From an uncultured Coriobacteriaceae bacterium (GTDB lineage Bacteria; Actinomycetota; Coriobacteriia; Coriobacteriales; CADBOM01), in NCBI GenBank assembly GCA_964581165.1, contig CAZOMM010000001.1, forward strand, positions 14,560 to 78,559: a stretch of 64,000 nt of DNA, read 5' to 3'. Positions 13,466 through 32,089 of the stretch are shown here, piece by piece. The stretch's first letter is position 1; each line of letters begins with the position of its first letter. The notes under the pieces are model-generated. The model saw only the letters and a program-made list of their open reading frames with translations, was not told the DNA's origin and did no database searches. Both the position numbers and the translations under genes were made by a program.

Positions 13466-15040
13466 TTAGCTTGCGAGCTTAAAGAAACGTGCTTGATGTG
13501 CGTATTGGCGTGGGATGCTCATTGTTAGCAGGGCTGTATGGTCAAAGGCCGATGGATTGGCAATCTTTACAACCTTTGCTCCACATACCTCGTTTCCGCT
13601 GCGATCAAGCGCCATTCCTTCAGTTCCCGTGGAGGGCAAGGGCAAAAACTCGTAAGGCAGAGTAACTTGAGCAGTTCCATCTCCAAGATCCTCATTAACT
13701 AAAAAGATGGCTTGGCCTGGGCAAAATGCTACGCACTTACCACAATTAGCGCACTTGGCCTTGGGATTGATCGTAGGCAACTTGGTCATGTTGTCCTTGC
13801 CTACATTTATGCAGTGCTGAGGACAGGCATCTCTGCAGGGATTACAAGGGATGTTTTGTGTGCATTCGATAACTGCATGCCAACCGTCTGTATGCACAAG
13901 TCCGCCAAACGAATCTATTTCTTCGTCGGTAACATAGCCTCGTTTAAGCAAACTTTGAGAAAGAGGGATTCCTTCGTCGGTTTGAGTGATTTCCTTGCCT
14001 CTATTTTGCGGAGCAAACATTCCCATTCGCAGGCTGTCCAGTGCTTCGAGATGTTCTTTTAAGGCTTTACCTGCAGTTTCTGCATCTATGTACCCTAAAA
14101 ACTCGGCCGCCGATACCGCAGCTATGCGTCCTTCGATCATGGCCGAACTGGCTTCTTCGATTCCAGAACAGTCTCCTGCAGCATAAATTCCTGGTACCGA
14201 GGTAGCGCACCGCTCATTAACAACTGGAACGCTGCCTCCCTTGTCTGTCATCTCACAACCGGCCATATCTAGAAGCTGCGATTGAGGCGAAAGGCCAGCT
14301 GCAAGACAGATTGTGTCTACATCAAAGTGTTTTTCGGTGCCCTCGATAAACTTAAAGTTGCTGTCTACTTCGGCTATCACAACTCCGCTTACATGGTCTG
14401 TTCCTTCGGCCTTTTTGATTGTGTGCGATGTGTAAAAGGGAACGCCGGTACGTGCAAGTTTGGATGCGTGTACTCCGTAGCCACCTATTTTGGGCGCTGC
14501 GTCAACAAGAGCCACGACTTCGCATCCAGCTTGCAAAAGCTGAAAACTCACCACAAGCCCAACGTTGCCGGTGCCAAGCATTAAGACTCTTTCTCCAGGT
14601 TTGACACCATTGAGGTTCATGAACATCTGAGCGGCTCCAGCGCCCATAACTCCGGGTAGAGTCCAGCCTTCGAACATGACTGCGTTTTCGGATGCGCCGG
14701 TTGCAACTATTATTGAGTCGGCTTTGCAATGCGAGACTTGTCTATCGTGATGGATCATTAGCTCTTTATTGGGAAAGATTCCCATAACTTCTGTGTTGAG
14801 TTCGACCTTGACTCCAGCTTCAGAGGCTTGTCTCAAGAGCTCTTGACCTATCGTGACTCCGCGTAGTTTAGCTCCGTGTTCTTTGGAGCCAAAAAACTTG
14901 TGAATCTGTTTGAATAGCTGACCGCCTGGACGGGAGTTTTCGTCAAAGACAACAACTTCTAGGCCATATTTTGCAGCTTCTATAGCAGCGCTAAGTCCAG
15001 ATGGTCCAGAACCTATAATTATCAAGTCGTAGCGTTTCAT
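13466..15040 (-). CDS. NAD(P)/FAD-dependent oxidoreductase with C-terminal ferredoxin-type Cys clusters (alpha-type subunit)
   Basis: YDLIIIGSGPSGLSAA and LMLGTGNVGLVVSF Rossmann motifs, with C-terminal CNPCRDACPQHC and CANCGKCVAFCP. Confidence 0.8.
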   Translation of the reverse strand: MKRYDLIIIGSGPSGLSAAIEAAKYGLEVVVFDENSRPGGQLFKQIHKFFGSKEHGAKLRGVTIGQELLRQASEAGVKVELNTEVMGIFPNKELMIHHDRQVSHCKADSIIVATGASENAVMFEGWTLPGVMGAGAAQMFMNLNGVKPGERVLMLGTGNVGLVVSFQLLQAGCEVVALVDAAPKIGGYGVHASKLARTGVPFYTSHTIKKAEGTDHVSGVVIAEVDSNFKFIEGTEKHFDVDTICLAAGLSPQSQLLDMAGCEMTDKGGSVPVVNERCATSVPGIYAAGDCSGIEEASSAMIEGRIAAVSAAEFLGYIDAETAGKALKEHLEALDSLRMGMFAPQNRGKEITQTDEGIPLSQSLLKRGYVTDEEIDSFGGLVHTDGWHAVIECTQNIPCNPCRDACPQHCINVGKDNMTKLPTINPKAKCANCGKCVAFCPGQAIFLVNEDLGDGTAQVTLPYEFLPLPSTGTEGMALDRSGNEVCGAKVVKIANPSAFDHTALLTMSIPRQYAHQARFFKLAS

Positions 15041-15058
15041 TCTTATACCCCCGTTTTG

Positions 15059-15556
15059 CTAGATTTTTGCTGTCATTGCAGTGGACATAGCAACAGGCTT
15101 TGACGTGTCAGAGGTATCCGTTGCTGCTTCGCCGAATGTTTCAGATACGGATGCTTCAGCTGTTCCGGATGTCTCAGATACGGGTGTTTCGAACGTCTCG
15201 GGTGCTTTGGATGCTTCGGGTGTTTCAGATGCTTCGAATGCCTTTGCGCTTACTCCGTACTGAGTTTGTACAGCCATGCCTTTTTCGACGGGGGTAACGC
15301 ATGTGCGAACATTGGGTTTGCCATCTACGATCATCACGCAGTCGGTGCATCGTCCTATTGCGCAAAAGACACCGCGTGGTTCATGCAAATTATTTGTATA
15401 TCGATGAATCATCACACCCGCAGCCTTAAGCGCCGCAGCAATTGGCTCTCCCTCGTAAGCTTGAATTGTTTTTCCGTTATAGGTAAACGAAATTAGTTTT
15501 CCTTTTTCGGGCTTACCTAGGATTGGGTGGTTCATTATCCGGTGAGACTTAGACAT
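15059..15556 (-). CDS. (2Fe-2S)-binding protein (Fer2_4-like) with repetitive acidic Ser/Thr-rich C-terminal tail
   Basis: FTYNGKTIQAYEGEPIAAAL...CAIGRCTDCVMIVDGKPNVRTC. The likely start is the ATG at 15556 (MSKSHRI), because the ORF-track start would overlap the upstream gene. Confidence 0.75.
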   Translation of the reverse strand: MSKSHRIMNHPILGKPEKGKLISFTYNGKTIQAYEGEPIAAALKAAGVMIHRYTNNLHEPRGVFCAIGRCTDCVMIVDGKPNVRTCVTPVEKGMAVQTQYGVSAKAFEASETPEASKAPETFETPVSETSGTAEASVSETFGEAATDTSDTSKPVAMSTAMTAKI

Positions 15557-15600
15557 TGGATTATCACTTTCTTTTTGGCGATTTGTATTTGGGGGATGAG

Positions 15601-16740
15601 CTAAGCAAACGTGGGAGCGTCCCATAGATGAAGTTTGGTGCCAATTCCCATCTTTACGGCGTTGTCATAGCAGTACTTGCCCCATGCAACGTCTTCTACC
15701 GGCATTCCACCAACACTCATCGTGATAACTTCGTCATCGCTTTCGCGTCCAGGTGCGCGGTCGAGGAGTATGTCGCCCATAGAGATGATTCGTTCGCGGG
15801 TGATCAAGCCGTCGTGAATCATGTCGGTAAACTTGCATCCAAAGATGTCCATTCCATATCCAAATGTGGGGTAGGGGTACTCATTGGCCCAAGAGTCGTA
15901 TAGGCCAATATCATCAACAACCAACTTGCACTTATCTATAAGATATTGATCCTCAACGTCAAAGGCAGAGGTACCGATGATAAAGGCACCAGGCTTGACC
16001 CAATCTCCCATAACTTTGGCATAGCTTGTGGGATCTGAGGTGGCTGTTGCTCCAAAGTAGACACAGTCGCTATCGCGGACTAGTTCTTCCAGTGTGTCTA
16101 CTACCTCGATAGTTGTAAATTGCGGGTGCTTTTCTTTAACGTAGGCAATATAGCCATCAATGCCTTGCTGGCTTCTACCCTTGATTTTTACAGTGTCTAG
16201 ATTTGGAATCTCTGCAGCAAAGGCATCGATTGCTGTACGGCTAACTCCTCCAGGTCCAAAGATCGCAAGCACCTTGGAATCTTTGCGAGCAAGATGACGA
16301 ATTCCAACTCCAGGAACACCGCCTGTGCGATATGCGGACAGCAAGTTTGCAGACTCTAGGGCAATTGGTGCTCCGGTGTCTTTGTCATTGAGCATGACCA
16401 TAAGGATCGAACGTGGCAGACCCTTTTCCTTGTTGGCAGTGTTGGAGCCGTACCATTTGCAACCTGCCATGTCAAAGGGGCCTCCTAGATAGGCCGGCAT
16501 TGCCATAAAGCGTCTATCTTCGCCTTGATCGGTTGGCATATTGGGGAATGGTGAGCTTTTGGGGAAGGTGACCATGCATCCATGGGAGGTGCCAGTTTTT
16601 CCACCCATCATAAAGTCACCTAATCTGAGGCATTTTAGGACCTCTTCCATGGTGTCGATACAATCCGAAATGTTCATTACACCAGCTTTGATCATGTCTT
16701 CTTCGTTGAGATAAAGGAAATCGATTGCCGGATAAGCCAT
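15601..16740 (-). CDS. ornithine cyclodeaminase / mu-crystallin family protein
   Basis: 379 aa with an OCD_Mu_crystall-like layout (LLSAYRTGGVPGVG..., Rossmann LAIFGPGGVSR). Confidence 0.75.
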   Translation of the reverse strand: MAYPAIDFLYLNEEDMIKAGVMNISDCIDTMEEVLKCLRLGDFMMGGKTGTSHGCMVTFPKSSPFPNMPTDQGEDRRFMAMPAYLGGPFDMAGCKWYGSNTANKEKGLPRSILMVMLNDKDTGAPIALESANLLSAYRTGGVPGVGIRHLARKDSKVLAIFGPGGVSRTAIDAFAAEIPNLDTVKIKGRSQQGIDGYIAYVKEKHPQFTTIEVVDTLEELVRDSDCVYFGATATSDPTSYAKVMGDWVKPGAFIIGTSAFDVEDQYLIDKCKLVVDDIGLYDSWANEYPYPTFGYGMDIFGCKFTDMIHDGLITRERIISMGDILLDRAPGRESDDEVITMSVGGMPVEDVAWGKYCYDNAVKMGIGTKLHLWDAPTFA

Positions 16741-16911
16741 GGGATCCTCCTTAGTGTCTGCCGCAGCTTCTTAGTGCTTAACATCTTTGCTAGCACCTAG
16801 GATTTAATTGACCTGCTGCGGTTTGGCTTTTGCTTTGCTTTACTGTGCTGTGCTCTGATCTGGCCCTTATAAAGGGAGTTTTACTTACTACTTATGAAAA
16901 CTTTTGAGCTT

Positions 16912-18240
16912 TTAATCCAATCCGGTAAAAGCGGGGTATCCAGATTCGCCATGCAGCGTGGTGTCCAGACCAGAGTTTTCGACGGTTTTGCTGACTCTGA
17001 GAGAGCCGCTAAAGATCTTTTTGACAGCAAATCCGATGATGGCCGTAATTGCAGCGACAAAAACAATCGTTACTAAAACTGCAAGTACTTGGCTTAAAAG
17101 TAGGGAGAAATCTCCGGTGTAGATAAGGCCTGCATTAGCAGATGGAGAAAGCTCTGGTGTTGCAAACACTCCAACAAGTATGGCTCCCACTAGTCCACCA
17201 AGTCCGTGTAGGCCAAAAGCATCGAGAGCGTCGTCCCATCCAAGTTTTCTCTTGAGCTTTGAGATAAAGAAGTAACAAACTGGGGAGACAATAATTCCCA
17301 TTACGATGGCTGCCCAAGGTTCGACATAGCCGCAGGCTGGGGTTATCACCACAAGACCAGCTATGACTCCAGACATCGCGCCAACTAGGGTGACTTTTTT
17401 GATTTTGATTTGTTCGACAAGCATCCATGAGATACCACCGGCACATGCTGCAAACAGGGTGTTCGCAATAGCCAAACCGGCGTTGCCATCGGCTACTAGT
17501 GCAGAACCGCCGTTAAATCCAAACCAACCCATAAACAGCATGCCGCCACCAAACATTACAAATGGAACATTGTGAGGACGCGCAGTGGAGACTTCAAAGT
17601 CTCTTCTCTTTCCAAGAATTAGGGCTAAGACTAAGCCAGATAAACCTGAGCAAATATGAACTGCAGTTCCGCCTGCAAAGTCGATGGCTCCAATACCATC
17701 TTGGATAAGGCCATTACCCCAAACCATATGAGCCATTGGGGCATAGACCAAAAGCGGCCATACAACTGCGATTACAGCTACTGCTCCAAACTTAGCCCTA
17801 CCTGCCAAAGAACCTGTAACGATGGCTGTGGTTACCATTGCAAAAGTTGCTTGGAATGCAACGCTAACGATTTCTGGATATGTGCCATAAGAGGCTTCGG
17901 CAAGAGTAGATGTATCCGTGGTTGATGTATTTGAGCTGATTACTTCTGATAGTGGCCAAGAGGAACCTATGCGCTCTAATCCCCCCACAAACAGAGCCGA
18001 GATACTCTGAATGCTGCCATCTTCTGCAAAGGCATCACTCGCGTTTCCATAAGCTATAGAGTCGCCTATTAGCGGCCAAGTGCAGCCTACGATACACATT
18101 GCAAGAATGCACATCAGCATTGTGTTGACTACATTTTTGCGCCGTGCAAGCCCTCCATAAAAAAGGGCCAATGCGGGACTCATCATGAGCACCAGAGCGC
18201 AGCTGACGATCATGAATGCAGTCGTGCCGGTGTCGTACAT
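16912..18240 (-). CDS. amt: ammonium transporter
   Basis: About 11 TM segments, with Amt signatures FGFNGGSAL and AVHICSGLSGLVLALILGKR. Confidence 0.9.
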   Translation of the reverse strand: MYDTGTTAFMIVSCALVLMMSPALALFYGGLARRKNVVNTMLMCILAMCIVGCTWPLIGDSIAYGNASDAFAEDGSIQSISALFVGGLERIGSSWPLSEVISSNTSTTDTSTLAEASYGTYPEIVSVAFQATFAMVTTAIVTGSLAGRAKFGAVAVIAVVWPLLVYAPMAHMVWGNGLIQDGIGAIDFAGGTAVHICSGLSGLVLALILGKRRDFEVSTARPHNVPFVMFGGGMLFMGWFGFNGGSALVADGNAGLAIANTLFAACAGGISWMLVEQIKIKKVTLVGAMSGVIAGLVVITPACGYVEPWAAIVMGIIVSPVCYFFISKLKRKLGWDDALDAFGLHGLGGLVGAILVGVFATPELSPSANAGLIYTGDFSLLLSQVLAVLVTIVFVAAITAIIGFAVKKIFSGSLRVSKTVENSGLDTTLHGESGYPAFTGLD

Positions 18241-18249
18241 GAACCCACC

Positions 18250-18295
18250 CTTTCTGTCGCGCGATCGGAGACGCTTTTGTTAACGCGACAGAAAG
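18250..18295 (-). promoter_or_regulatory. 12-bp perfect inverted repeat in the amt 5' leader, abutting the ribosome-binding site
   Basis: CTTTCTGTCGCG (18250-18261) and CGCGACAGAAAG (18284-18295). On the mRNA the 3' arm runs into GAAAGGGTGGGTTC-ATG. Confidence 0.5.
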
Positions 18296-18458
18296 AGCAT
18301 ATGTGCTGGTTTTTTCCTAAATGTTTCGATAACGCTTGCCCGAGCCTCGTAACATTTTTTTGAACAGGCGGTTATCTCAAAGAAACAATGGTTTAACCAT
18401 TGGGCAATAAGAGAGGCTCAAATCGCTGATTTTGAGTCGCTGATTGATTGTCAGCGAT

Positions 18459-20237
18459 TTATACCAGACCGTCTTTTTTATCGTTGGTGGCAGCTAGGTC
18501 GGCATTACGAATTGCGGCTCTCCTGATCTTGCCATTAACAGTCTTAGGCAAAGCATCAACATAAGAGATGATCCTAGGATATTTATAAGGTGCAGTTTCC
18601 TTTTTACACCAGGTTTGCAGTTCTTTTGTCAACTCGTCAGATGCCTCAAAACCAGGGCTTAGCACAATAGTTGCCTTAACACTCATGCCTCTAATCTCAT
18701 CAGGCACACCCGTAACTGCACACTCGGCAACTGCATCGTGCTCCAAAAGCACGCTTTCGATCTCAAAGGGACCAATCCTGTATCCGCTCGACTTGATCAC
18801 ATCATCATTGCGGCCCACATACCATAGATAACCGTCTTCGTCGCGCCAGGCTGTATCTCCTGTGTGATACCAGCCATCTCGAATTGCAGCTTTTGTGCGC
18901 TCCTCATCACGGTAATACTCGGTAAGAATGCCTGGAACCCAGTGCCAGTTGGTGTAATCGTGGACTTCGATGCAAATTTCGCCAGTTACACCAGCATTAC
19001 ATTCTTGGTTGTTTTCGTTCAAGATCGCCACATGATATAGGGGATTTGGCTTACCCATTGAACCCGGTTTGGGAACCATGTTGGTGAGATTGGCAACAGC
19101 AAGCGGGGTCTCGGTTTGCCCAAAGCCCTCAAAAATTGTAAGTCCGGTATGCTCCTTCCAAGCATTGAATAAATCGGGATTAAGAGCCTCACCTGCAGTA
19201 GTTGAGTAAACCAAGCTCGACAGATCGTAGGAATCGACATCTTCGAGCATGATCATGCGATACATCGTAGGTGGACAGCATAGAGTTGTGATCTTGTAGT
19301 CTTGAATTAGCCGCAAAATTTCCGCAGCATCAAAGCGGTCAAAGTCGTAGGTTAAAACGCATGCCTCCATGAGCCACTGCCCATAGAACTTGCCCCAAAC
19401 AGCTTTGCCCCATCCGGTATCAGCAATCGTAAAATGAACACCGCCGTCGCTAACAACATTGTGCCAATGCTTGGCTGTGACCAAGTGCCCCAAGGGATAG
19501 GCTCCATCGTGCATAACCATCTTAGGCTCGCCCGATGTTCCGGACGAAAAGTACATCAAGAAGGGATCTGCAGGACTTGTTTGAACCTTCTCAAAGACCT
19601 CAGATGTCTTGCGAACTTCGGTATTAAAGTCGATCCAACCCTCACGCTCTACAGGCAAAGCGCAGATGCCGTCGGGGCCGCTGAGCACAGATCCAATTGT
19701 GGGATCTTTCTTGGGATCACCCATGCCGCCGCCTCCGCCATTTACAAGGAAGACTTTTTCGACACTAGGACACTTAGGCAGGCATGCATCTACTACATCG
19801 GGGATAAAACCGCATGAAGTGCAGATAACATACTTAATTTCTGCACTATCAAGGCGGTATTTAAGATCGTGCTCCTTAAGCATAAAAGTAGCTGGCACCA
19901 TTACGGCACCAAGTTTATGTAATGCTACTGCAGTAAACCAAAACTGGTAATGACGCCTAAGAATCACCATCACCATATCGCCGCGCTTAACACCTTGCGA
20001 GGCAAGCATGTTGGCAGTTTTGTCCGACCAAAGCTTGATGTCTGCAAAGGTAAAGATGTGCTCCTCGCCCTCAGGGTTACACCATATCATTGCTGGTCTG
20101 TCTGGCTCTGCCGTTGCTATATCGTCTACGCAGTCATAAGCAAAATTGAAATCTTTGGGTATCTCCAAGTCAAAGTCTGATAAGACTCCGTTGGCATCAT
20201 AGGTCTCCCTGACGTATCTTTCATTGATCTTGAGCAT
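18459..20237 (-). CDS. AMP-forming acyl-CoA synthetase (medium-chain/acetyl-CoA-synthetase-like)
   Basis: AMP-binding motif YFSSGTSGEPK and C-terminal ...PKTVNGKIRR. The likely start is the ATG at 20237 (MLKINERY). Confidence 0.85.
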   Translation of the reverse strand: MLKINERYVRETYDANGVLSDFDLEIPKDFNFAYDCVDDIATAEPDRPAMIWCNPEGEEHIFTFADIKLWSDKTANMLASQGVKRGDMVMVILRRHYQFWFTAVALHKLGAVMVPATFMLKEHDLKYRLDSAEIKYVICTSCGFIPDVVDACLPKCPSVEKVFLVNGGGGGMGDPKKDPTIGSVLSGPDGICALPVEREGWIDFNTEVRKTSEVFEKVQTSPADPFLMYFSSGTSGEPKMVMHDGAYPLGHLVTAKHWHNVVSDGGVHFTIADTGWGKAVWGKFYGQWLMEACVLTYDFDRFDAAEILRLIQDYKITTLCCPPTMYRMIMLEDVDSYDLSSLVYSTTAGEALNPDLFNAWKEHTGLTIFEGFGQTETPLAVANLTNMVPKPGSMGKPNPLYHVAILNENNQECNAGVTGEICIEVHDYTNWHWVPGILTEYYRDEERTKAAIRDGWYHTGDTAWRDEDGYLWYVGRNDDVIKSSGYRIGPFEIESVLLEHDAVAECAVTGVPDEIRGMSVKATIVLSPGFEASDELTKELQTWCKKETAPYKYPRIISYVDALPKTVNGKIRRAAIRNADLAATNDKKDGLV

Positions 20238-20351
20238 AGTTAGCCTTCCCATTGCTTACAGTCGGCACGACGAGGCCATGCCGGTCAAATTAGTCTTTGT
20301 CCGCCAATGAATGGGGTTGTGGGGGAAATCTGTAGCGGTGTTCAGAAAGAA

Positions 20352-20948
20352 TCAGAAATCCCCTTCGGAAATTCCGTCTTCTGGGGATCGAATCACTATG
20401 GCCAAAAAGACGCAGGGTTCGCCACCAATGGCAATCATTCCATGTCCGCGTCCAGAGTCGTAAAGCAAGGCATCGCCTGCCGATAGCTCCTCGATATGAT
20501 CTTCGTATCTAAAGCGAAGCTTGCCGCTAAGAATAAAATCAAACTCTTGGCCATTGTGTTTTGAGAGATGAATAGGTGCTTCTTGCTCCTCTTCTAGATA
20601 GGGAGCTGTAACTACAAAAGGCTCACATAGCTTGCCTTCAAAGTTTGGAGCTACGTGTAGATATTCAAATCCGGCTCTTCTGCGAATATGCAGGCCATCG
20701 CCAGAGCGCACTACCGAATAACCACGAAGATGTGGATTTTCTCCGGTTAAAAGCTCGATAACATCTACTCCAAGCTTTTCTGCACATTTGTAAAGGAAGG
20801 TAAAACTCAGATCGCTCTCACCCGATTCTTGGGCAAGGTATTCTTCGACACTACGACCGGTGGCCTCAGCCATCTCTTCGTCGCTAAATCCTAGGTCGTC
20901 TCGCAGGGAGCGAATCCTGCTAGCGATCTCGTTGATATTTGGATCCAT
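20352..20948 (-). CDS. XRE-family HTH regulator with C-terminal cupin domain
   Basis: N-terminal HTH_3 (IASRIRSLRDDLGFSDEEMAEATG) and cupin_2 (GDALLYDSGRGHGM). GGGAGGA lies upstream of the ATG at 20948. Confidence 0.8.
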   Translation of the reverse strand: MDPNINEIASRIRSLRDDLGFSDEEMAEATGRSVEEYLAQESGESDLSFTFLYKCAEKLGVDVIELLTGENPHLRGYSVVRSGDGLHIRRRAGFEYLHVAPNFEGKLCEPFVVTAPYLEEEQEAPIHLSKHNGQEFDFILSGKLRFRYEDHIEELSAGDALLYDSGRGHGMIAIGGEPCVFLAIVIRSPEDGISEGDF

Positions 20949-21030
20949 ATCTGTCCTCCCTAACTTAGTCAACTCGGATCTGCTACAGCTAAATTAGCTA
21001 AACAATCGTCAGGTCGAGATTCTAGCTAGC

Positions 21031-21100
21031 TCGTTTGCTTGCGTTTACTTACGTTTGCTTTCGCTCATTTTCGCTTACTTTAGCTTACTTTCGCTTACTT
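21031..21100. repeat. seven tandem 10-bp units (TCGYTTRCTT-like), helically phased
   Basis: The seven units read tcgtttgctt, gcgtttactt, acgtttgctt, tcgctcattt, tcgcttactt, tagcttactt and tcgcttactt. Confidence 0.85.
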
Positions 21101-21262
21101 GGCAGAGCCTAAGCGCCTTGTAATAAATGCAAAAGCTATGTATAAAGGGCTTTATTTAATCTGAGCTAGAGACAGGGCGGTATTGTAGCACTGTCTCGTA
21201 CCTTAAAGACTTTTGGATGCCATACGGTATCCATACGGTACATATGAGGAGTAAGAAAACAC

Positions 21263-21883
21263 ATGAGAGACACAGAGGCATCGGAGACATCGGAGGCATC
21301 AGAGTCATCGGGCAGCAGATCCGAAAATGTTGCCAGAACTGGAATGATTGCTGCTCTGTATGCGGTTGCCACCCTAGTTACGATGTTTGTACTACAGGGA
21401 CTTTCTTGGGGACTTGTTCAAATTAGAATCTCAGAAGCTCTGATGGCCTTTGCTTTGTTTTCTCGATCGGCAATTCGAGGTCTTGGAATTGGCTGTGCAA
21501 TTGCCAACTTACTTGCAATTCCGCTTGCTGGTACTGGTGCTTTAGGTTTGCTGGATGTGTTTTTTGGAACCTTAGCCACAGTTTTAGGTGCAATGTGGTG
21601 CTGGAAAATGCGCGAACACAAGCTGTTGGGGCTTTTTGGGCCAGTAATCACGAATGCCTTGATTGTTCCAGCGTATCTACCTTTTCTCCTAACAGCTGCT
21701 GGAGCTTATACAATCCCCTTTACAGATATTGCGATTACCGGGGCCTATCCAATTTTGTATCTGGTTGGAGTCGCAGGAATTGGAATTGGGGAGCTTATAT
21801 CTGTAATTGCTCTTGGCTATCCCTTATCTAGATATCTTGCGAAGACGGGCCTGTTTACAGATAAACCAGATAAATCAGAATGA
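21263..21883 (+). CDS. queT: queuosine precursor transporter QueT
   Basis: GMIAALYAVATLV... QueT-like TM pattern, 206 aa, with an acidic Ser/Glu-rich N-terminal extension. Confidence 0.7.
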   Translation: MRDTEASETSEASESSGSRSENVARTGMIAALYAVATLVTMFVLQGLSWGLVQIRISEALMAFALFSRSAIRGLGIGCAIANLLAIPLAGTGALGLLDVFFGTLATVLGAMWCWKMREHKLLGLFGPVITNALIVPAYLPFLLTAAGAYTIPFTDIAITGAYPILYLVGVAGIGIGELISVIALGYPLSRYLAKTGLFTDKPDKSE

Positions 21884-22020
21884 GATAAAAAATGCTAGCT
21901 TTGTAAAAAATGCTAGCGTTTTACTGTATAGGGGTTTATCCTGTAGTCTGTTTTTGTAACTCCTTAGCGGCTGCAATATGTCCGTATTTGGATTGACCAT
22001 AAGTTTGGATTGTTCAGAAA

Positions 22021-22054
22021 TAAATGACGCATGAACGTAAATGATGCATGAACG
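22021..22054 (+). promoter_or_regulatory. 17-bp direct repeat pair TAAATGAYGCATGAACG x2 immediately upstream of the GT-A-like/LytS/LytTR operon
   Basis: Copies at 22021-22037 and 22038-22054 with one mismatch, ending 15 nt before the TTG start at 22070. Confidence 0.45.
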
Positions 22055-22069
22055 AAACCGGAGATACCA

Positions 22070-23311
22070 TTGAACCCTGTGATCATCATACCTACATATG
22101 TAAGTGCTTCAAAACAGCGTACCGAGGCAGGTGTGATTGATACCTACGATCACATGACACCACTTGATAGGCCAGGCGAATTGGGAAGATGTCTCTCTTC
22201 GCTTAAGGGCTTGGAGACTTTGGCACCAGTGGTAATTTTGGTTGTTAGTGAACAGTCTTGCGAAGAACAAGCGCTAGAGAAGATTCGTTCGGATGCTGCG
22301 TATTTTGCTGGAGATTTAGATATCTCGGTTATAGGACATAGCGAGGAAGCTTTCTTGCACACCAGGATGGTTCAGCTTGGTGCTGCTGATCACACTAAGG
22401 GAATTTCGCTTACTGGCTATGGTGCTATGCGCAATTTTGCTTTGATTTACGCCGCTACGATGGGTTATACCGAGGCTATTTTTATAGACGATGACGAGAT
22501 AGTCGAAGATCCCGAATTTGTTTCTAAGGCCTGTTATGGCCTGGGGATGCTTACACAAAGCGATGTTCCCATCCTTGTTAAGTCGGGTTATTACCTAGAC
22601 AGACGAGGAAGTTATCGAGCAAGAGAAAAGCGCGGTTGGTACAACAAGTTTTGGAAACAGCATGAAGGCTTTAACGCTTGGATCGACAAGGCAATGGCAG
22701 GACCTAGGATATCGCCGTCTAATACGGCATGTGGAGGGTGCTTGGCTTTGCATCGAGAGGCTTTTAGGCGTGTTTCTTTTGATCCGTGGATCCCAAGAGG
22801 GGAGGATCTAGATTTTCTCTTAAACGTGAGGATGTATGGATCAGAAATATGGTTCGATAACGCTTGGCATCTAAGACACCTACCCCCAAAAAGCTCCAAG
22901 ATGGAGTCGATCAGATTTAGACAGGACATTTATAGGTGGTTTTACGAGAATCGCAAGCTTGAGTTTTCGAGCGCCCAGATAGATCTTTTGCAAGTTCCCA
23001 CTAGTTCCTTAATGCCGTATCCGGGACCTTTTTTGGAGTCGTCCATCAATTTCAACATTTTTATGACAGCTCTTCTTAGGTCAATTGGCAGATCAGGTCA
23101 TAGAAGGGCTTATTTTAGGGCTGCGATGGACTCGAGGCGAGGTGCTGTGGAGTACGCAAAAGAAAACTGCTCTAATTACTTTTCGTTCCAGCGAGCTTGG
23201 CCAGAGGTCGTGGCTGTTCTAGAAGAGGATCTAGCACTTGCTGGTGCCTTCGAAAGAGCCAAGGTAAAACCCATAGCCCAATCGGGATCGGATAAGACAG
23301 ATGATGGATGA
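22070..23311 (+). CDS. GT-A-fold glycosyltransferase-like protein (family uncertain)
   Basis: N-terminal VIIIPTY and an acidic FIDDDEIVEDP (DxD-like) motif, 413 aa. GGAG lies upstream of the TTG start. Confidence 0.5.
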   Translation: MNPVIIIPTYVSASKQRTEAGVIDTYDHMTPLDRPGELGRCLSSLKGLETLAPVVILVVSEQSCEEQALEKIRSDAAYFAGDLDISVIGHSEEAFLHTRMVQLGAADHTKGISLTGYGAMRNFALIYAATMGYTEAIFIDDDEIVEDPEFVSKACYGLGMLTQSDVPILVKSGYYLDRRGSYRAREKRGWYNKFWKQHEGFNAWIDKAMAGPRISPSNTACGGCLALHREAFRRVSFDPWIPRGEDLDFLLNVRMYGSEIWFDNAWHLRHLPPKSSKMESIRFRQDIYRWFYENRKLEFSSAQIDLLQVPTSSLMPYPGPFLESSINFNIFMTALLRSIGRSGHRRAYFRAAMDSRRGAVEYAKENCSNYFSFQRAWPEVVAVLEEDLALAGAFERAKVKPIAQSGSDKTDDG

Positions 23312-24677
23312 GAGTACCGGCAGGCCAGCGAATGGTCGGCATACCCATCAGATGCTTACCTTTGTATCAGCGATCCTGCTGGTTTTGTTTGCCTGTGGGC
23401 TAATAGCCTCGTTTAGCTATGAACTTATTGTCTGGGAACTTGTTTGTGTAGTTGGATTGTCTATATGTTCAATCTTGCTAGGCAGGTTCTCTAAAAGCTC
23501 AGATAAGCTTCGTGCCGATCAAACCAACCGAATGCTTAGTCTTGCGGGTAACACCTTAGGTTTTATGCGCAAAGGTCTCGATGAATACTCGGCAACTAAG
23601 GCTTGCGAGGCGCTTCTTCCATTCACAGAGGCTGAGTCGGCTGCAATCTATGACAAGAGCGCAACGCTGCTAGGAACCTGTGGGTGCGAGACTTTGTGGG
23701 ATAGATATGGGGATCCTGTACCAACGCTTGCTGCTCAAACTCGTTTTGAGTATGGTGCCAAGTTTGTAATAGGCACTGATGCCACAGTAAAGGGCGGTCT
23801 TCCAACTAGACTTAAGGGATGCATTGTTGTTCCCTTAACTGTGCAAGACAATCTGGTGGGAATGCTTAAGCTTTACTATCCTAGCCATTCAGATATCGAT
23901 GAAACGCAGCAAGCTATGGCAATGGGTTTTGCGATTTTGCTGTCCAATCAGCTGGCCTTGGCAGAACTGGATGCCAAAACAGAGCTTGCTACAAAGATGG
24001 AATTGCGTGCTTTGCAAGCCCAGATTAACCCTCATTTCTTATTCAATACAATCAATACCATTGCGTCTTTGATCCGCACCGATCCAAGGCAGGCCAGAGT
24101 TTTGCTTAGAGAGTTTGCGGTCTTTTATCGCAGAACCCTAGAAAGCTCACAAGACCTAATTACCATCGAGCTAGAATTAACTCAGACTTTACGTTATCTT
24201 GGATTCGAGCGCGCCCGTTTTGGGACAGAAAGGATTCGGCTTTCTAATTATGTAGAGCCCGGCCTCGATAGTTTAGAAGTGCCCGCCTTTATCATCCAAC
24301 CCATAGTAGAAAATGCTGTGGGGCATGCAATGAGACCAGATGGTGAGGTACTTCATATTAAAATCGAGGTTAAAAGGCAAGGCGATGATGTTGTTATCTC
24401 AGTTGCCGACGATGGTGTTGGAATGGAATCGGCAAAGTCGGCGACAGCTGTTCAAAAGGGCAACTCCCCAGGTGCTGGGATAGCTCTTAAGAACGTTGAT
24501 GATAGACTCAAAAGTTGCTTTGGATCTGGATCGGGCATACACATAGACTCGGTCTTAAATGAGGGAACTATCGTGTATCTAACACTTGCTGGTGCTGCAT
24601 TGGGCTTGGACGAAGATTTGGATGAGGAGTCAGAGCAAGTAGAAGTAGCCGAGGCAAAAGATGCGATGTTGAATTAA
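23301..24677 (+). CDS. LytS-type sensor histidine kinase (2 TM + GAF-like + His_kinase + HATPase)
   Basis: LRALQAQINPHFLFNTINTI H-box region and HATPase N/G boxes. It overlaps the upstream gene by 11 nt. Confidence 0.8.
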   Translation: MMDESTGRPANGRHTHQMLTFVSAILLVLFACGLIASFSYELIVWELVCVVGLSICSILLGRFSKSSDKLRADQTNRMLSLAGNTLGFMRKGLDEYSATKACEALLPFTEAESAAIYDKSATLLGTCGCETLWDRYGDPVPTLAAQTRFEYGAKFVIGTDATVKGGLPTRLKGCIVVPLTVQDNLVGMLKLYYPSHSDIDETQQAMAMGFAILLSNQLALAELDAKTELATKMELRALQAQINPHFLFNTINTIASLIRTDPRQARVLLREFAVFYRRTLESSQDLITIELELTQTLRYLGFERARFGTERIRLSNYVEPGLDSLEVPAFIIQPIVENAVGHAMRPDGEVLHIKIEVKRQGDDVVISVADDGVGMESAKSATAVQKGNSPGAGIALKNVDDRLKSCFGSGSGIHIDSVLNEGTIVYLTLAGAALGLDEDLDEESEQVEVAEAKDAMLN

Positions 24678-24687
24678 GGAGGACACA

Positions 24688-25401
24688 TTGTTACGCGCGA
24701 TGATAGTAGATGATGAGGCACCGGCAAGATCGGAGCTAAGCTACATGCTTCAGGAGACCAATCAGGTTGAGGTTATTGCTGAAGCCAGTAGTGTTAGGGA
24801 GGCCATTGAGAGCCTAAAGGACAATGGCTGCGATGTGATGTTTTTGGACATCAACATGCCAGGCGCTACAGGTCTTCAGCTTGCGCAGGCCCTCACCAAG
24901 ATTTCCCGCCCACCAGCGGTGGTTTTTGTAACTGCATATAGTGAGTATGCCGTAGAGGCATTCAAGGTTAATGCTATCGACTATTTAGTAAAACCCATAG
25001 AGATTGATAGGCTTTATCAGGCCATTGAGAAGGTTAAAAAGCATGTCTCTATGATCAACAAGAACAATCCCGCAGAGAGAATTCCGGTTGAAAAGGGTGG
25101 AAAGAAGCTACTCGTTTCTACAGACAAAATTCTCTACATTATGGCAAAAGACGATTACTCCTATCTCTATACAGCGAGCGATAGATATCTGTCGACTGTG
25201 TCTTTGGCTAATCTAGAGAGCAAGCTTGAGATGCATGGCTTTTTTAGAGTACATCGTGGATATCTGGTAAATCTTGCTTGCGTTGAAGAAGTTACTCCTG
25301 TAAATGGTGGAACCCTGCTACTAACTCTTTCTGGAACTGATGTACAGATTCCGGTTTCGCGCAGGAGGGTCTCGGCGCTTAAGAAGGCTCTTGGTCTTTA
25401 G
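24688..25401 (+). CDS. LytTR-family response regulator
   Basis: REC domain (AMIVDDE...FLDINMPG) plus a LytTR C-terminus (FFRVHRGYLVNL). AAGGAGG lies 5 nt upstream of the TTG at 24688. Confidence 0.9.
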   Translation: MLRAMIVDDEAPARSELSYMLQETNQVEVIAEASSVREAIESLKDNGCDVMFLDINMPGATGLQLAQALTKISRPPAVVFVTAYSEYAVEAFKVNAIDYLVKPIEIDRLYQAIEKVKKHVSMINKNNPAERIPVEKGGKKLLVSTDKILYIMAKDDYSYLYTASDRYLSTVSLANLESKLEMHGFFRVHRGYLVNLACVEEVTPVNGGTLLLTLSGTDVQIPVSRRRVSALKKALGL

Positions 25402-25457
25402 CGCAATAGGCTACTGCAATAGAGACTACGATAGAGACTGGGGTAAAGGGGTTCGTT

Positions 25458-26492
25458 ATGAGGGCAGCATGCCTAACTAGGGAATTTGATCCTGTAGACA
25501 ATACTTCCGGTAAGGTGGAGTGCATCGATTGGCCTAAGCCTAAACTTGTTCATGACGACGATGTGCTCGTAAAAGTAGCCTACGCATCTATTTGTGGATC
25601 AGACAAGCATTACATCAAGGACAATCTCTTTTCTGGAACGCTTCCTTACGTTGTAGGACATGAGATGTCTGGGGTTATAGAAGATCTAGGTTCTGCAGCT
25701 AAAGAGATGGGCCTTGGTGTAGGCGATCGAGTAACCGGAAACTTTTTGCTTGAGTGTGGCCTTTGCTTTGATTGCCGTACCGGCCGTCAGCAATTCTGCA
25801 AGCATCCTAAGTTGATGCTAGGCACTCAAGCAGAGTACCTAGTTTGGAATGCTAATCAGATTTTTAAAATTCCAGATGATGTTTCGCTTGAGGTTGCCTC
25901 GTTAACCGAGCCCTTTGCAATTGCGGTCAATGCTGTTATGAGGGCAGGAATTTCTGTAGGCAAAAGCGTTTTTGTTATAGGTGCTGGATCAATTGGACAG
26001 ATGCTGATTCAGCTTGCTCGCATAAATGGCGCGAGCCTTGTTGCCACTTCGGCTAGGACTGCCTCTAAAAGAGACCTGGCCTTAAGTTTTGGCGCTGATG
26101 AGGCTATTGATCCCAATGAGGTAGATGTTGTTGAGGAGGCCTTGAGAATCACTGGAGGACGTGGTTTTGACATTGTAATTGAGGCCTCGGGCAATATCGA
26201 TTGTGTAAACCAAGGCATCGATATGGCTGCCGAAGGTGGCAAGGTGCTGATGGTGTCGTATTACGATCCCGAAAAAGAAGTGCCCATCAAGGTTTTTAAG
26301 AAGCTCGTTCAGCGTGAAGTAACTTTACAGGGTATGCAGCTGGGTCAAACAGGATGGCCCTATGCAATTAGCATGCTTTCGCGCGTGGATTTGGAGCCAC
26401 TCATCACAAAGGTTTACGATCTAGAGGACGTAGAAAAAGCCTATGAAGATTTGATGGAGGGCACTCAGCTAAAGATTCTCCTTAAGTGTTAG
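25458..26492 (+). CDS. zinc-dependent alcohol/polyol dehydrogenase (MDR family)
   Basis: Catalytic CGSD and GHEMSG, a structural-Zn CGLCFDCRTGRQQFC motif and GAGSIG Rossmann fold. Confidence 0.85.
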   Translation: MRAACLTREFDPVDNTSGKVECIDWPKPKLVHDDDVLVKVAYASICGSDKHYIKDNLFSGTLPYVVGHEMSGVIEDLGSAAKEMGLGVGDRVTGNFLLECGLCFDCRTGRQQFCKHPKLMLGTQAEYLVWNANQIFKIPDDVSLEVASLTEPFAIAVNAVMRAGISVGKSVFVIGAGSIGQMLIQLARINGASLVATSARTASKRDLALSFGADEAIDPNEVDVVEEALRITGGRGFDIVIEASGNIDCVNQGIDMAAEGGKVLMVSYYDPEKEVPIKVFKKLVQREVTLQGMQLGQTGWPYAISMLSRVDLEPLITKVYDLEDVEKAYEDLMEGTQLKILLKC

Positions 26493-26727
26493 GGCTAAGC
26501 AGAGATTTTGGCAAGCACCATATCTGGACGGCCAAATTAGGTAAACACCAAGCGACTATGATCCCCTTAGCCATATTTAACAAACTTGTAACACTTATCC
26601 CAAAAAGCCTCGGTACACTTTAGCGCTGGAAGTTCGGCTTTTTAAACAATTGCTTTGTGGACTTACTTCGTGGGCTTTTGTCTAAAAATCTGACAAGTAG
26701 TCTTTAAAGCGTGTGACTGAAGGCTGA

Positions 26728-28107
<1,380 letters not shown>

Positions 28108-28228
28108 AGAGATCCTTGTTTAGCCTTTAAAGAGAGTATCCAAGTTTTTGATGCTGTTTTTTGACAGATTTGACGGATTGATCTGATCGTTAGATTGGGT
28201 CTAGAAAAAGAATCAAAGAAATCAAAGG

Positions 28229-28280
28229 AGCGGGTCTTGTTTGTGCTGTTATGAGCACAGCAAGGCTCGTTCTTTTTTTG
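28229..28280 (+). terminator. intrinsic terminator after gdhA
   Basis: Imperfect long hairpin GAGC..CTTG..GTGCT / AGCAC..CAAG..GCTC, followed by GTTCTTTTTTTG. Confidence 0.65.
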
Positions 28281-28376
28281 CTGTTAACGAAATGAGGGGC
28301 GCGCTTGGTTTGTTAACGCCTCTATCAGGGTACTCCTGTCTAAGGGTGCTTGCTTTGAGAAATTATCGCGCGAAGC

Positions 28377-30533
28377 TTACTCGACCTTAAAGCCACCAAT
28401 CGGGGTTTCCACATTGTCGTTAGTTAGACCTAGATCTTTTTTGGCTGCACGTAGCTCCCATTTGTGAAGATCGCATATCAGCCAGGTAAGACCAGCTGCT
28501 GCATACAAAAGAACAATCGCAGGCAGCAGTATCCCAGAGTCTTCTATCAGCAACATGAGTACGGCAACGATCATCGCTGCGGTAAACGAGGCCTTAAAAG
28601 CTGTATTTCTCTCCCAAAACACAGCATATGGGCCAGGCTTTCTGATACGCAGCCATGCCAAGTAAATCCAAACAATAACTAGCACAACTGATAGAACTGG
28701 ATTAAGCAGTAGTGTTTCTACGCTAAGAGATAGCATGCTTCTAATAATTACAGGTACGTAGGCTATACCCTGATCGAGCAAATTAGTGGCAGTGGCACCA
28801 AGATGTGATTGTCCATCGCCTAGCGTTCCATCCACAATTATCAAAAGCAATGTAAGTAGGCCGCAGGCGATTACCGTTAATGTTACAGCTCGCCAATTCA
28901 ATCTGCGTCCAATAAACATCCACCAAGCACAGCCCACGCCTACTGTACCCCAAACCAACACGCCAAAATTAGCTCCCCACCAAGGTGCCACAATTACGGC
29001 AATAATCAAAAACGAGGCTATTGGAAATAAATACTTAGCAAAAGTCTTTGAAGCCTTTAGATCGGGAAACCTGTTTAAAATCAAGCCAGAAAATAGCAGC
29101 CACGATCCAAATAGAACTCCTGCTCCCTCGTTGCCTATACCCGAGAATCGCACAGCCTCTATTGGTCTATAGGAAAGATATCCCGCTTGGGCAAGTATTC
29201 CGCCTGCGAGCTGATCTACTAGCAGCACAATTATTGTTGCAGCCATTAAGAACAGCAGCGAATAGAGCCAGCGTGTAAATCTACCTACCAAGGTGGCAAC
29301 AAGGGCTATAACTACGGTGAGCACAAGACACAGACTCAAAGAGCCGTTTGGTGTGATTCCATCAGCTGCCAGTGGATACATTAGATATGTAGCCAGGGGA
29401 TAAGACATTGTGAGTATCCACAACAGTCTTGTTATGGATATCAAAACACTGAGCACTCGCACAGGTAAGCGTATTGCACGAGAAAGCATCACGATAGAAA
29501 AAGCAAAGGATACCGACAATACGGCGATAAAGGTATATGTTGCGGTTTCGAGCGAGAGGTCAATTGCGCGGGAGTAAGAGGACACTCTGTCTAATTCAGA
29601 TATCGTTGTAGCAACATCTTCGTCATTAGAATTTTTGGCCGGATATAAAGCTCCGCCATTGTCGGCAATCTCTGAGATGCCTGCTAAGCCACAGATTGTA
29701 TCAGTGAGGTCCAGGATGGTTACAGTTCCGGCACGGATAGTTACCGGCGAAAAAAGCAGGCCATCCATGTCCTTAGCAAGCACAATTAGCGGACCCATTG
29801 CATCGTCAGAATGGTCTGAATTGGTGGTTTCGGCCAAGGAGGAATAGATAATCAGAGCATCATCTCCATCCATAAGCGACAAGATTTCTCCAACCACCTC
29901 ATCAAAGGACGAGAGTGCCCAACTCCATTGCTCGTCTGCGTTGTCCACAATCCCATCTATCCTTGCTGCGCCTGCTCTGTAGAGATCTCCCGTATCTATT
30001 GCAAGGGCTTGGTTGCGCTGTGTGGAGTCAATGGCTTTTTGTATATGGTTGAGCAAAGCTTCGTAGTTTGTTTCGGCTTTACCTGCAGCTTCTTCGTTTT
30101 GACTCAGGATATCATCTGGGTTATAGGCTTCGTATTCAACATGCCCGCCCTCGTCTGCCACTGCTATAAATGCTGGTCTTACCTCTTGTTCTTCATAATC
30201 GCTATTGCCTATTGCGGCAGTTTGCCAACCCGCATCGCTAAGTGCCTGTCCTAGTCTTCCCTGCAAACTCCTTGTGTCTGTACTAGAAGGTTCCGGGCAC
30301 CACCAACCAGCAGCTAGGCTAGAAGCTGATTCTTCTGGGGTGACAATTTGCTTGTCTATTCTCGAGATTGATCTGGCTACTAGGTTTGCAACACCTGCAT
30401 ATTCCAAAATAGAGTTGATATTTGGTGTGGACACATCGCTAATGTCATCCCATGTTAAAAATGGCGCGTCTAGCAAAAAGATTTGCTGCTTGCCATCACC
30501 TTGTGAATCTAGGGGATTGGACAAGGTTTGCAA
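28377..30533 (-). CDS. large polytopic membrane protein with about 330-aa N-terminal soluble domain, unknown function (ORF stays open upstream to 30665)
   Basis: 718 aa from the TTG at 30533, with more than 10 predicted TM helices in the C-terminal half. See the finding on a probable non-canonical upstream start. Confidence 0.7.
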   Translation of the reverse strand: MQTLSNPLDSQGDGKQQIFLLDAPFLTWDDISDVSTPNINSILEYAGVANLVARSISRIDKQIVTPEESASSLAAGWWCPEPSSTDTRSLQGRLGQALSDAGWQTAAIGNSDYEEQEVRPAFIAVADEGGHVEYEAYNPDDILSQNEEAAGKAETNYEALLNHIQKAIDSTQRNQALAIDTGDLYRAGAARIDGIVDNADEQWSWALSSFDEVVGEILSLMDGDDALIIYSSLAETTNSDHSDDAMGPLIVLAKDMDGLLFSPVTIRAGTVTILDLTDTICGLAGISEIADNGGALYPAKNSNDEDVATTISELDRVSSYSRAIDLSLETATYTFIAVLSVSFAFSIVMLSRAIRLPVRVLSVLISITRLLWILTMSYPLATYLMYPLAADGITPNGSLSLCLVLTVVIALVATLVGRFTRWLYSLLFLMAATIIVLLVDQLAGGILAQAGYLSYRPIEAVRFSGIGNEGAGVLFGSWLLFSGLILNRFPDLKASKTFAKYLFPIASFLIIAVIVAPWWGANFGVLVWGTVGVGCAWWMFIGRRLNWRAVTLTVIACGLLTLLLIIVDGTLGDGQSHLGATATNLLDQGIAYVPVIIRSMLSLSVETLLLNPVLSVVLVIVWIYLAWLRIRKPGPYAVFWERNTAFKASFTAAMIVAVLMLLIEDSGILLPAIVLLYAAAGLTWLICDLHKWELRAAKKDLGLTNDNVETPIGGFKVE

Positions 30534-30985
30534 TGAAGCACCCTCGTCTGTGGTTCCAAGCGCAAGTGCGGCAGACGTGCAATTTAGCGTTATTGTTCCA
30601 GATAGGGCCAGGCTTGCAAGTAAAACAATCCACAGCCTTTTTAGAATGGCTATTGTTTCTCCTTTTTAAATCTCTTTGTTTCTAGACTTTTTAGTCTTTT
30701 TAGACCTAGTTTATGAATGTTATCACTGGCATGTATCAGCATGTCAGATCGACTCCGGGTTTGCGTTGTTCTTCATGAAAAACTTAATTTGAACCTGTCT
30801 AGCTTGCGATTTCAATCAAGTAGATCTGCGTTAGCAGAAACAATAAAGAACATTGCTTTGTACCCGTTCGGTAATTGTGTCAATTCTGGTTTAACATGGT
30901 AACGGCTACTAGGTAGCTCATACTTTGATCTGTAGAACGATTCATGGGACAGGGGATTCTCCAAAGAGACTTCGAAAGGAACCAA

Positions 30986-32089
30986 ATGAAAATACTTCTT
31001 GCCGCATCTGAGGCGAGTCGGGTTCGGCGCTTTTATATGCCGCTTTTAAATAAGCTGCGTGATATAGGGGGAGTTGTTCATTTGGCTTTGGGGGATCTAG
31101 ATGCAGACATTTCCGAATATCTGGCCGATGTTGTGCTGCGGTTTTTGTGTTTAAGTCCAGAGTCTAAGGGCAGTGGATCGAGTGAACTTGCAGCCCTTTT
31201 AACCAACGAAAGATACGATGTTCTTATTTGCTGTGGTCAATCTGCGGCAAATTGTTGTTTTAAAGTTCTATCTCGTTTGAGAACCAAGCCATCTGTGGTG
31301 ATAGTTCAAGACATGCCTCTGGTTTTTGATTGTTTCTGTAATCCCTTCGCTAAAGGATTGAATAAACGCAATTTCAAAAAACTGAGATCTTGCACCGATT
31401 TGTTTTTGGCATCCAATTCAGCTGATCTAATAACGGCACAAAGGCTGTTGCCTCAAACTAGATGTGAACTTGTGCCTGCTACTGGATTAAATCTTATGGC
31501 CTGTAAACCGGCTTCTTTGGATACAAGAAACAAAGCAAGAGAGGCTTTGGCTTGCACAAACGACACTTTTTGCATTGTGACCAACGGCAACGCAGGCAAA
31601 AAAGGCATAGGTTTTCTCATAGACGCAATGCTCTATTTGCCAAGAATCATCAGTTTGTTTGTATTGGAAGCAAGCGAGCTCAAAACTAAGCTACAGAGAA
31701 AAATTACAAATTTGGGCTTGGAAGATAAGGTCCGTTTATTGACTGATTCCAAAACAAATGACTGCCTTGCTGCGGCAGATTTGGTGATAGATGCGAGTGT
31801 CGGCCTCGGTTTTTCTAACATGCTTGCAACTGCTCAGGCTATGGGGATTCCAGTTTTGGCTAATGCTGCTAGAGGTAATCTGGATTTGGTTGTAAGTGGT
31901 CATACCGGGCTTACATTTTCTGTGGGAGATCTAATGAGCTTGGTGTATGGGATACGCTCGATGATGTACCAGCAAACTCTGCGTGAATATCATGCGGATA
32001 ATGCGCAAAAGCAGCTTGCAAAATACGATGGTGAGCAGATGGCAAACCGTACTATAGAACTAATAGATTCCATCTATAAGATCTGCTAG
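30986..32089 (+). CDS. glycosyltransferase, GT-B fold (group 1 / GT4-like)
   Basis: C-terminal GLGFSNMLATAQAMGIPVLA...VVSGHTGL motif. The likely start is the ATG at 30986 (MKILLAAS). Confidence 0.7.
   Translation: MKILLAASEASRVRRFYMPLLNKLRDIGGVVHLALGDLDADISEYLADVVLRFLCLSPESKGSGSSELAALLTNERYDVLICCGQSAANCCFKVLSRLRTKPSVVIVQDMPLVFDCFCNPFAKGLNKRNFKKLRSCTDLFLASNSADLITAQRLLPQTRCELVPATGLNLMACKPASLDTRNKAREALACTNDTFCIVTNGNAGKKGIGFLIDAMLYLPRIISLFVLEASELKTKLQRKITNLGLEDKVRLLTDSKTNDCLAAADLVIDASVGLGFSNMLATAQAMGIPVLANAARGNLDLVVSGHTGLTFSVGDLMSLVYGIRSMMYQQTLREYHADNAQKQLAKYDGEQMANRTIELIDSIYKIC

Follow-up and report, generated by a model that had tools for sequence, protein, structure and literature searches.

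We identify, in an uncultured Coriobacteriaceae bacterium, a three-gene unit encoding a GT-A-type glycosyltransferase (GT)-like protein, a sensor histidine kinase, and a LytTR response regulator. It occupies positions 22070-25401 of the 64,000-nucleotide stretch analysed here (GenBank assembly GCA_964581165.1, contig CAZOMM010000001.1, positions 14,560 to 78,559 of the forward strand; hereafter the window, whose numbering is used unless another locus is named). We think it reasonably likely that this is a Coriobacteriia-wide operon, in which a GT-A enzyme is joined to a two-component system that probably controls the enzyme gene, and that the short direct repeats in front of it are probably incidental. 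A previous reading of the letters alone (the sequence-only reading) had proposed these repeats as autoregulatory LytTR boxes.

A conserved GT-kinase-regulator unit

The GT gene (22070-23311, + strand; 413 aa in the open reading frame list) starts with TTG, six bases downstream of a GGAG ribosome-binding site at 22060-22063. The N-terminus that follows, MNPVIIIPTY, is kept in every GT homologue, and we therefore take TTG 22070 as the start codon. Automatic calls on two contigs of the same strain (L098 and L099) begin the protein at Met29 (392 aa); since this drops the conserved N-terminal beta-strand, the TTG is the better start. The kinase gene (23301-24677, + strand; 458 aa) has its ATG at 23301, inside the last codons of the GT gene, and the 11-nt overlap noted in the sequence-only reading can be read directly as ATGATGGATGA. 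The regulator gene (24688-25401, + strand; 237 aa) has a TTG start preceded by AAGGAGG.

Via the GT protein we gathered 87 loci from genome and metagenome collections, 40 of which remained after removal of near-duplicates; individual loci are given as L numbers. The kinase gene lies 3′ of the GT gene, on the same strand and within 3 kb, in 14 of the 16 non-redundant loci with enough downstream DNA, and the regulator gene comes directly 3′ of the kinase gene or after inserted genes (a peptidase gene, a restriction-modification system). A TauE/SafE-family membrane protein gene follows the GT gene in 23/26 loci, including L012, which lacks the kinase; its usual place is between the GT and kinase genes, and examples directly 3′ of the GT gene are found in L003 (6321-7259), L012 (7285-8184), L019 (7477-8343), and L041 (7276-8121). 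In the clade to which the window belongs (L001, L002, L006, and L007) no TauE gene intervenes and the GT gene is joined directly to the kinase gene, with an overlap of 17 nt in L001. The TauE homologue of the window lies 35 kb from the GT gene, at 58273-59247 on the − strand. The GT-(TauE)-kinase-LytTR cluster is conserved across the Coriobacteriia, including the gut genera Raoultibacter and Senegalimassilia, and the consistency of the pairing between the GT and the LytTR system is its notable point.

The same order extends to more divergent loci. In a Coriobacteriales metagenome-assembled genome (L089; GT at 29% identity) the order is GT-kinase-regulator and the gap is 3 nt, and two loci labelled 'Actinomycetota bacterium' (L091 and L092; 39% identity) have GT-TauE-GNAT-kinase-regulator; the linkage is old. 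Four termite-gut loci (L010, L012, L024, and L036) carry a GT-TauE pair with no kinase gene nearby. Full-length GT homologues at about 25-30% identity occur on a Bathyarchaeota-type contig (L088) and in other Actinomycetota (L094-L097), and no two-component system was found near the GT gene at these five loci; the neighbours there include genes for a GT4 (beside the Bathyarchaeota proteins), for PPDK, and for a Ser/Thr kinase. Because these distant homologues stand alone, the GT enzyme has a function of its own.

The sequence-only reading considered a sensor operon led by an enzyme gene to be unusual, which overstates the case, as this arrangement is a conserved trait of the lineage. Kinase-regulator pairs are commonly preceded by accessory or target genes, as in liaF-liaSR and vraU-T-SR, and so the enzyme-led operon is not remarkable in itself.

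The 413-aa protein belongs to an uncharacterised GT-A family

The description of the 413-aa protein as GT-A-like, first made from its motifs IIIPTY (residues 5-10) and DDDE (residues 140-143), is borne out by structure prediction, by fold comparison, and by profile matches within its family. Taken alone, the protein scores 16.7 bits against Pfam Glyco_trans_2_3, below the gathering cut-off of 27, and matches no NCBIfam family; a single-protein search of PDB sequences gave only matches to ketol-acid reductoisomerase (E = 0.14), which we judged spurious. More than 1,100 relatives are present in a 90%-clustered protein database, and those that are named come nearly all from Coriobacteriia and are labelled hypothetical or 'GT2 family'; clustering at 50% leaves 539 representatives, of which 212 reach E ≤ 1e-30.

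We aligned 88 family members with identities down to 22%. Residues conserved in at least 90% of them are P8, D27, R121-N122, D140-D142, G222-G223, F237-D238-P239, R243-G-E-D246, D248, R289, Y292, K296, Y317-P318, and W377; these include the DxD motif D140-D141-D142, and D140-D142, R243-D246, and D248 are invariant or nearly so. GT2-clan Pfam models match 28/88 and 25/88 members (E ≤ 0.01), or about 30%, and no Pfam family outside the GT2 group matches any of the 88 at this threshold save for two stray single-member matches.

AlphaFold2 with the 88-sequence alignment returned a GT-A fold at a pLDDT of 95.3 and a pTM of 0.94, superseding a first model built on 32 close homologues (pLDDT 66.9) that gave weak fold matches only. 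Among 110 Foldseek matches to the PDB with E ≤ 0.001, the best 50 are all GT-A enzymes, the top ones at a probability of 1.00. The best match is MtdL, a GT75 nucleoside diphosphate (NDP)-pyranose mutase (E = 7e-10, TM 0.43-0.52), followed by PcManGT (E = 2e-8) and, more weakly, GlfT2, BcsA, hyaluronan synthase, and chondroitin polymerase, with E-values of 2e-8 to 1e-6 against the GT2 enzymes. MtdL also came first in a profile search of PDB sequences (E = 0.004), in a match of 36 residues only that covers the RN...DDD segment. In the model, long C-terminal helices span residues 279-395; the tail beyond is short in the window protein and long, acidic, and variable in its relatives. No transmembrane segment was found in the GT protein by hydropathy. 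We predict a soluble, cytoplasmic glycosyltransferase-like protein of the DxD type with a confident GT-A fold, which may be a transferase or a mutase.

GT75 enzymes (MtdL and plant RGP/UAM) are Mn-dependent NDP-pyranose mutases that glycosylate an arginine of their own. The window protein and MtdL have the DDD triplet in common, and MtdL R257-x-x-D260 (PMC9937993) resembles R243-G-E-D246 of the window protein, as a pattern match only. However, identity to MtdL is only 11-12%, and it is GT2 models that members of the family match; in residues 171-200 of the alignment, where the counterpart of MtdL Arg159 would lie, we see no conserved arginine. With GT2 enzymes (PcManGT/DPMS-like, GlfT2, and the catalytic domains of BcsA and hyaluronan synthase) the protein shares the GT-A fold, the DxD motif, and an ED-type motif, and one of its long helices begins with a Q-D-x-x-R-W/F segment reminiscent of the GT2 QxxRW, although the spacing is Q-x-x-x-R-W rather than Q-x-x-R-W. 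It differs from them in having no membrane domain and in falling below the Pfam gathering score. The family is unassigned, with GT2 as its closest neighbour in sequence and GT75 and GT2 as its closest neighbours in fold; it is an uncharacterised GT-A family found mainly in Coriobacteriia.

A kinase with a reduced membrane anchor and a LytTR regulator

The sequence-only reading described the kinase as having two transmembrane helices and a GAF-like domain in place of the 5TM-Lyt module, followed by a LytTR regulator, and both Pfam and hydropathy agree. The kinase matches GAF (22.7 bits, marginal against a cut-off of 22.4), His_kinase PF06580 (78.4 bits), and HATPase_c (37.9 bits), and contains the histidine box NPHFLFN; there is no Pfam match to 5TM-5TMR_LYT (PF07694) at E ≤ 0.01. 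Its two hydrophobic stretches span roughly residues 17-38 and 41-62, and the loop between them is some 3 residues long, which leaves the kinase without an external sensing domain. This two-helix N-terminus is kept in the orthologues of L002, L003, L089, and L092. The regulator has Response_reg (90.1 bits) and LytTR (88.4 bits) domains, both above their cut-offs, and is 86% identical to its Senegalimassilia orthologue.

The order GAF, His_kinase (PF06580), HATPase_c is that of the kinases in the systems LytS/LytR, BtsS/BtsR, and YpdA/YpdB, and the regulator is likewise of the REC plus LytTR type. Its best NCBIfam matches are BtsR (180.5 bits) and LytR (168.7 bits), but it lies below both equivalog cut-offs (246 and 375, respectively). 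PF06580 kinases with other N-termini, such as those of the YesM type, are already known. LytS-type kinases (HPK8, LytS-YhcK) are defined by 5TM-5TMR_LYT, with at least five helices (PMC5552118); the window kinase, in contrast, has two helices and is without this family-defining domain. From their sequences, the pair is most aptly regarded as a LytTR regulator and an HPK8-type kinase whose membrane anchor is reduced. The operon partners also set it apart from the LytS, BtsS, and YpdA systems, as they are a GT-A enzyme and TauE; the genes that we inspected in the surroundings of these loci include no target gene of the CstA/BtsT, YhjX, or LrgAB type.

Output or input: the place of the GT-A enzyme

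In the mechanism that we favour, the kinase would use its GAF-like domain to sense a cue in the cytoplasm or carried by the membrane, and would phosphorylate the LytTR regulator, which would then adjust transcription of the GT gene and, in most relatives, of the adjacent gene for a TauE-family exporter as well. The enzyme and the exporter would be the output and the two-component system a regulatory add-on, such that in one large clade an enzyme usually paired with an exporter would have acquired a dedicated two-component regulator.

The GT-A protein could instead stand at the other end of the pathway, as an input module of the kinase: it would bind a nucleotide-sugar or envelope precursor, transmit its bound state to the two-helix kinase, and so stand in for the 5TM-Lyt domain that is missing. 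The kinase is without an extracytoplasmic domain, the GT and kinase genes stay adjacent down to 29% identity (in lineages without TauE they overlap or are separated by 3-17 nt), and the long helices of the model could be an interaction surface. However, TauE, and sometimes GNAT, separates the GT gene from the kinase gene in most Coriobacteriia, GT-TauE pairs occur with no kinase nearby, and the distant homologues stand alone. The catalytic-type residues are moreover fully conserved, as for a working enzyme, and the kinase has a GAF-like sensor domain of its own. We consider this alternative unlikely. A more elaborate version, in which a LytS-derived kinase has lost 5TM-Lyt, forms a complex with the GT-A protein as a reporter of precursor levels, and together with TauE makes up an as yet undescribed enzyme-as-sensor circuit in Coriobacteriia and related Actinomycetota, seems to us slightly less probable again.

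The repeats upstream of the GT gene

The 186-bp spacer between the GT gene and the upstream gene queT holds three tandem pairs of 17-18 bp. The 17-bp pair for which LytTR binding was proposed is present as the sequence-only reading described it, at 22021-22037 (TAAATGACGCATGAACG) and 22038-22054 (TAAATGATGCATGAACG) on the + strand, with 16/17 positions identical and a Tandem Repeats Finder (TRF) score of 61. Directly before it is a second tandem pair with the same 17-bp period, at 21987-22002 (TTTGGATTGACCATAA) and 22004-22019 (TTTGGATTGTTCAGAA) on the + strand (13/16 identical), which that reading overlooked; 21987-22054 is a run of four consecutive 17-bp units. The third is a direct pair of AAAAAATGCTAGC with a period of 18, also reported earlier and placed one base off; its copies are at 21887-21899 and 21905-21917 on the + strand.

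Several features recommend the 17-bp pair as an operator. LytTR regulators bind paired direct repeats (PMC4847170), and the near-perfect pair stands directly 5′ of the regulator's own operon, a likeness to the direct-repeat boxes of the AgrA, ComE, PlnC, YpdB, and BtsR operators. Published LytTR sites, however, consist of two repeats of 9-11 nt separated by a spacer of 11-13 nt (PMC4847170), and the 17-bp period at 22021-22054 leaves a spacer of 6-8 nt and falls outside the published range of 20-24 bp. The position also differs from those operators, in that the window pair adjoins the ribosome-binding site. Its second copy runs to 22054, which leaves 5 nt to the GGAG and 15 nt to the start codon of the GT gene. 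As conservation fixes this start codon firmly, no promoter can lie 3′ of the repeats, and they would lie in the leader rather than 5′ of the promoter. Known LytTR boxes lie upstream of the −35 region.

Conservation gives a similar picture. No copy of the window repeat was found in 42 non-redundant orthologous upstream regions, despite a regulator that is 58-87% identical across these loci. The sequence-only reading had named such an absence from orthologous promoters as refuting its proposal; the gene unit itself is conserved. For BtsR and YpdB, by comparison, the motifs are reportedly better conserved than the proteins (PMC5552118). When direct repeats of any sequence spaced 15-24 bp apart are counted, no more than 3/42 orthologues rise above their shuffles, by 1-2 matches and with unrelated sequences. 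Within the window, no extra copies of either 17-bp unit occur above chance. Only the same-strain contigs L098 and L099 carry the 17-bp repeat; they are identical to the window and hence uninformative on copy-number variation.

Short tandem duplications are also a general property of this genome. TRF reports 65 short tandem arrays in the window, and under a strict definition (period 12-25, two adjacent copies, at most one mismatch) there are 12 pairs against 0.05 expected from shuffles. Eleven of the 12 are intergenic, where intergenic DNA makes up 15% of the window. This amounts to about one pair per kilobase of intergenic DNA, and a 186-bp spacer therefore has about a one-in-five chance of containing a pair. 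The 17-bp pair is thus far beyond chance when set against shuffled sequence, but is not unusual against the genome's own intergenic DNA. Two- to four-copy duplications are seen at 8573-8608, 33698-33727, 44849-44905, 49516-49543, and 53122-53166, among others. It is possible that such duplications arise by slippage and are tolerated only outside genes, or that the genome has many repeat-type operators.

Given their period, their position by the ribosome-binding site, their lack of conservation, the genome background, and the absence of a regulon in the window, the proposal that the repeats are autoregulatory LytTR boxes is unsupported. We regard the three spacer pairs as probably lineage-specific short duplications of the kind that this genome accumulates in intergenic DNA, and the 17-bp repeats as probably an incidental local duplication and not the operator of the regulator. 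A modified proposal is that the repeats, possibly all four units at 21987-22054, are LytTR sites that, lying between the promoter and the ribosome-binding site, would act as a negative autoregulatory operator or roadblock and not as activator boxes. Four in-phase 17-bp units would permit cooperative binding of a multimer, and CGCAT is contained in the leaders of a few orthologues (L002, L003, and L008); CGCAT is, however, not among the most enriched words in a k-mer test, and the objections from spacing, conservation, and background duplication apply here too. We find this proposal improbable, about as much so as the input-module alternative. We had also considered a CGCAT or GTAAAYGA element shared by the repeat unit and orthologous leaders, and dropped it as not prominent in the same test.

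Promoter, leader, and a candidate conserved operator

A sigma-70 promoter scan of the + strand from queT to the GT gene found no promoter. In orthologous upstream regions, the most enriched hexamer is TACAAT(A), present in 16/39 against 1.35 expected and located 38-166 nt before the start codon; long leaders are thus the rule among the orthologues, with TACAAT(A) as the −10 box. By analogy, TGCAAT at 21972-21977 on the + strand is a candidate −10 box in the window (TGCAATA, 98 nt before the start), and we infer that all four 17-bp units would lie in the 5′ leader, between this candidate and the ribosome-binding site.

A sequence with better comparative support is TTTCGGTGG, found in 7/39 orthologous upstream regions, against about 0.5 expected, at Eggerthellaceae-type loci. 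It lies upstream of the GT gene in L003, L004, L009, L013, L027, and L041, about 28-33 nt 5′ of the TACAAT −10 box, and is often preceded by CCTGTT. It was not found upstream of the GT gene of the window, and its copies across the window do not exceed chance. On sequence grounds, we propose TTTCGGTGG, rather than the repeats of the window, as the more promising candidate for this operon's conserved operator.

It is very unlikely that the repeats act in the mRNA leader, by binding an RNA-binding protein or small RNA or by folding to control GT translation: they would be transcribed if TGCAAT at 21972 is the −10 box, orthologues likewise have long leaders (38-166 nt), and GAAC-type sequences recur just 5′ of the ribosome-binding site in several of them, but the predicted fold of the leader at 21984-22085 is not stronger than that of shuffled sequence (−13.6 kcal/mol, z = +0.83), Rfam gives no match in 15000-32000 at E ≤ 1 (neither a known leader element nor a preQ1 riboswitch 5′ of queT), and conservation of the repeats is lacking.

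For the AAAAAATGCTAGC pair, a terminator-like hairpin that ends queT is a better explanation than LytTR boxes. GCTAGC is its own reverse complement, and the pair forms a hairpin at 21889-21922 (+ strand) with an 11-bp stem that begins 6 nt after the queT stop codon. The RNA fold is at −14.5 kcal/mol (z = −3.08), equalled by 2/200 shuffles; a simple terminator scan missed it because its 12-nt loop exceeds 8 nt.

Some points weigh against our overall reading of the operon and its repeats. We infer that the regulator controls its own operon, and distant targets are the alternative. The leader placement leans on TACAAT boxes of relatives that are 50-60% identical. LytTR recognition sequences differ between regulators, and the repeats may be a non-canonical site. 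The nearest distinct relative (L001; protein identity of 76%) is without the window repeats, which is weak evidence since non-coding DNA would diverge anyway. Finally, three tandem pairs in one 186-bp spacer is dense even for this genome.

Neighbouring genes and further repeats

The gene upstream of the operon, queT (21263-21883, + strand), encodes a QueT-family membrane protein (Pfam QueT, 109.6 bits). In 11/28 non-redundant loci a queT gene is present no more than 1.5 kb upstream of the GT gene, and in L007 it ends only 10 nt before the GT start. Within the annotated N-terminus of the window's queT, a 9-bp repeat (21262-21311) encodes SETSEASESS, and the true start may therefore lie further downstream. 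Just 5′ of queT, CCATACGGTA is present twice with an 11-bp period (21220-21240). An HTH-cupin regulator gene (20352-20972, − strand) is divergent from queT, and the spacer between them contains a 10-bp tandem array of TTACTTTCGC (about 5.6 copies, 21029-21100), which, with its helical period, could be an operator array or bent DNA.

Downstream of the regulator gene is a zinc-type alcohol dehydrogenase gene (25458-26492, + strand; Pfam ADH_N and ADH_zinc_N). No terminator-like site was found in the 56-nt gap between the two (25402-25457), the first being a weak one only at 26625, and the alcohol dehydrogenase gene may therefore be co-transcribed by read-through from the operon. A tblastn search of the related loci with the alcohol dehydrogenase protein gave no match, and the gene is never beside the regulator gene there. 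The spacer after the regulator gene also includes a duplicated segment near 25421-25441, one of the window's tandem duplications.

Significance

Much of what first drew attention to this locus was its promoter repeats, which are probably incidental. The lesson is that short intergenic tandem duplications are too common in this genome for an operator reading without comparative support. The operon, though uncharacterised, is of a conventional kind; new are the GT-A family, which is unstudied, and the constancy with which it is associated with a LytTR system in Coriobacteriia. We found no paper in the literature on a GT-(TauE)-kinase-LytTR module, and as the GT family is also uncharacterised, the module is a reasonable target for studies of envelope or metabolite regulation in Eggerthellaceae. 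If the GT-A protein does feed the kinase, it would be a new type of input for LytS/LytTR signalling.

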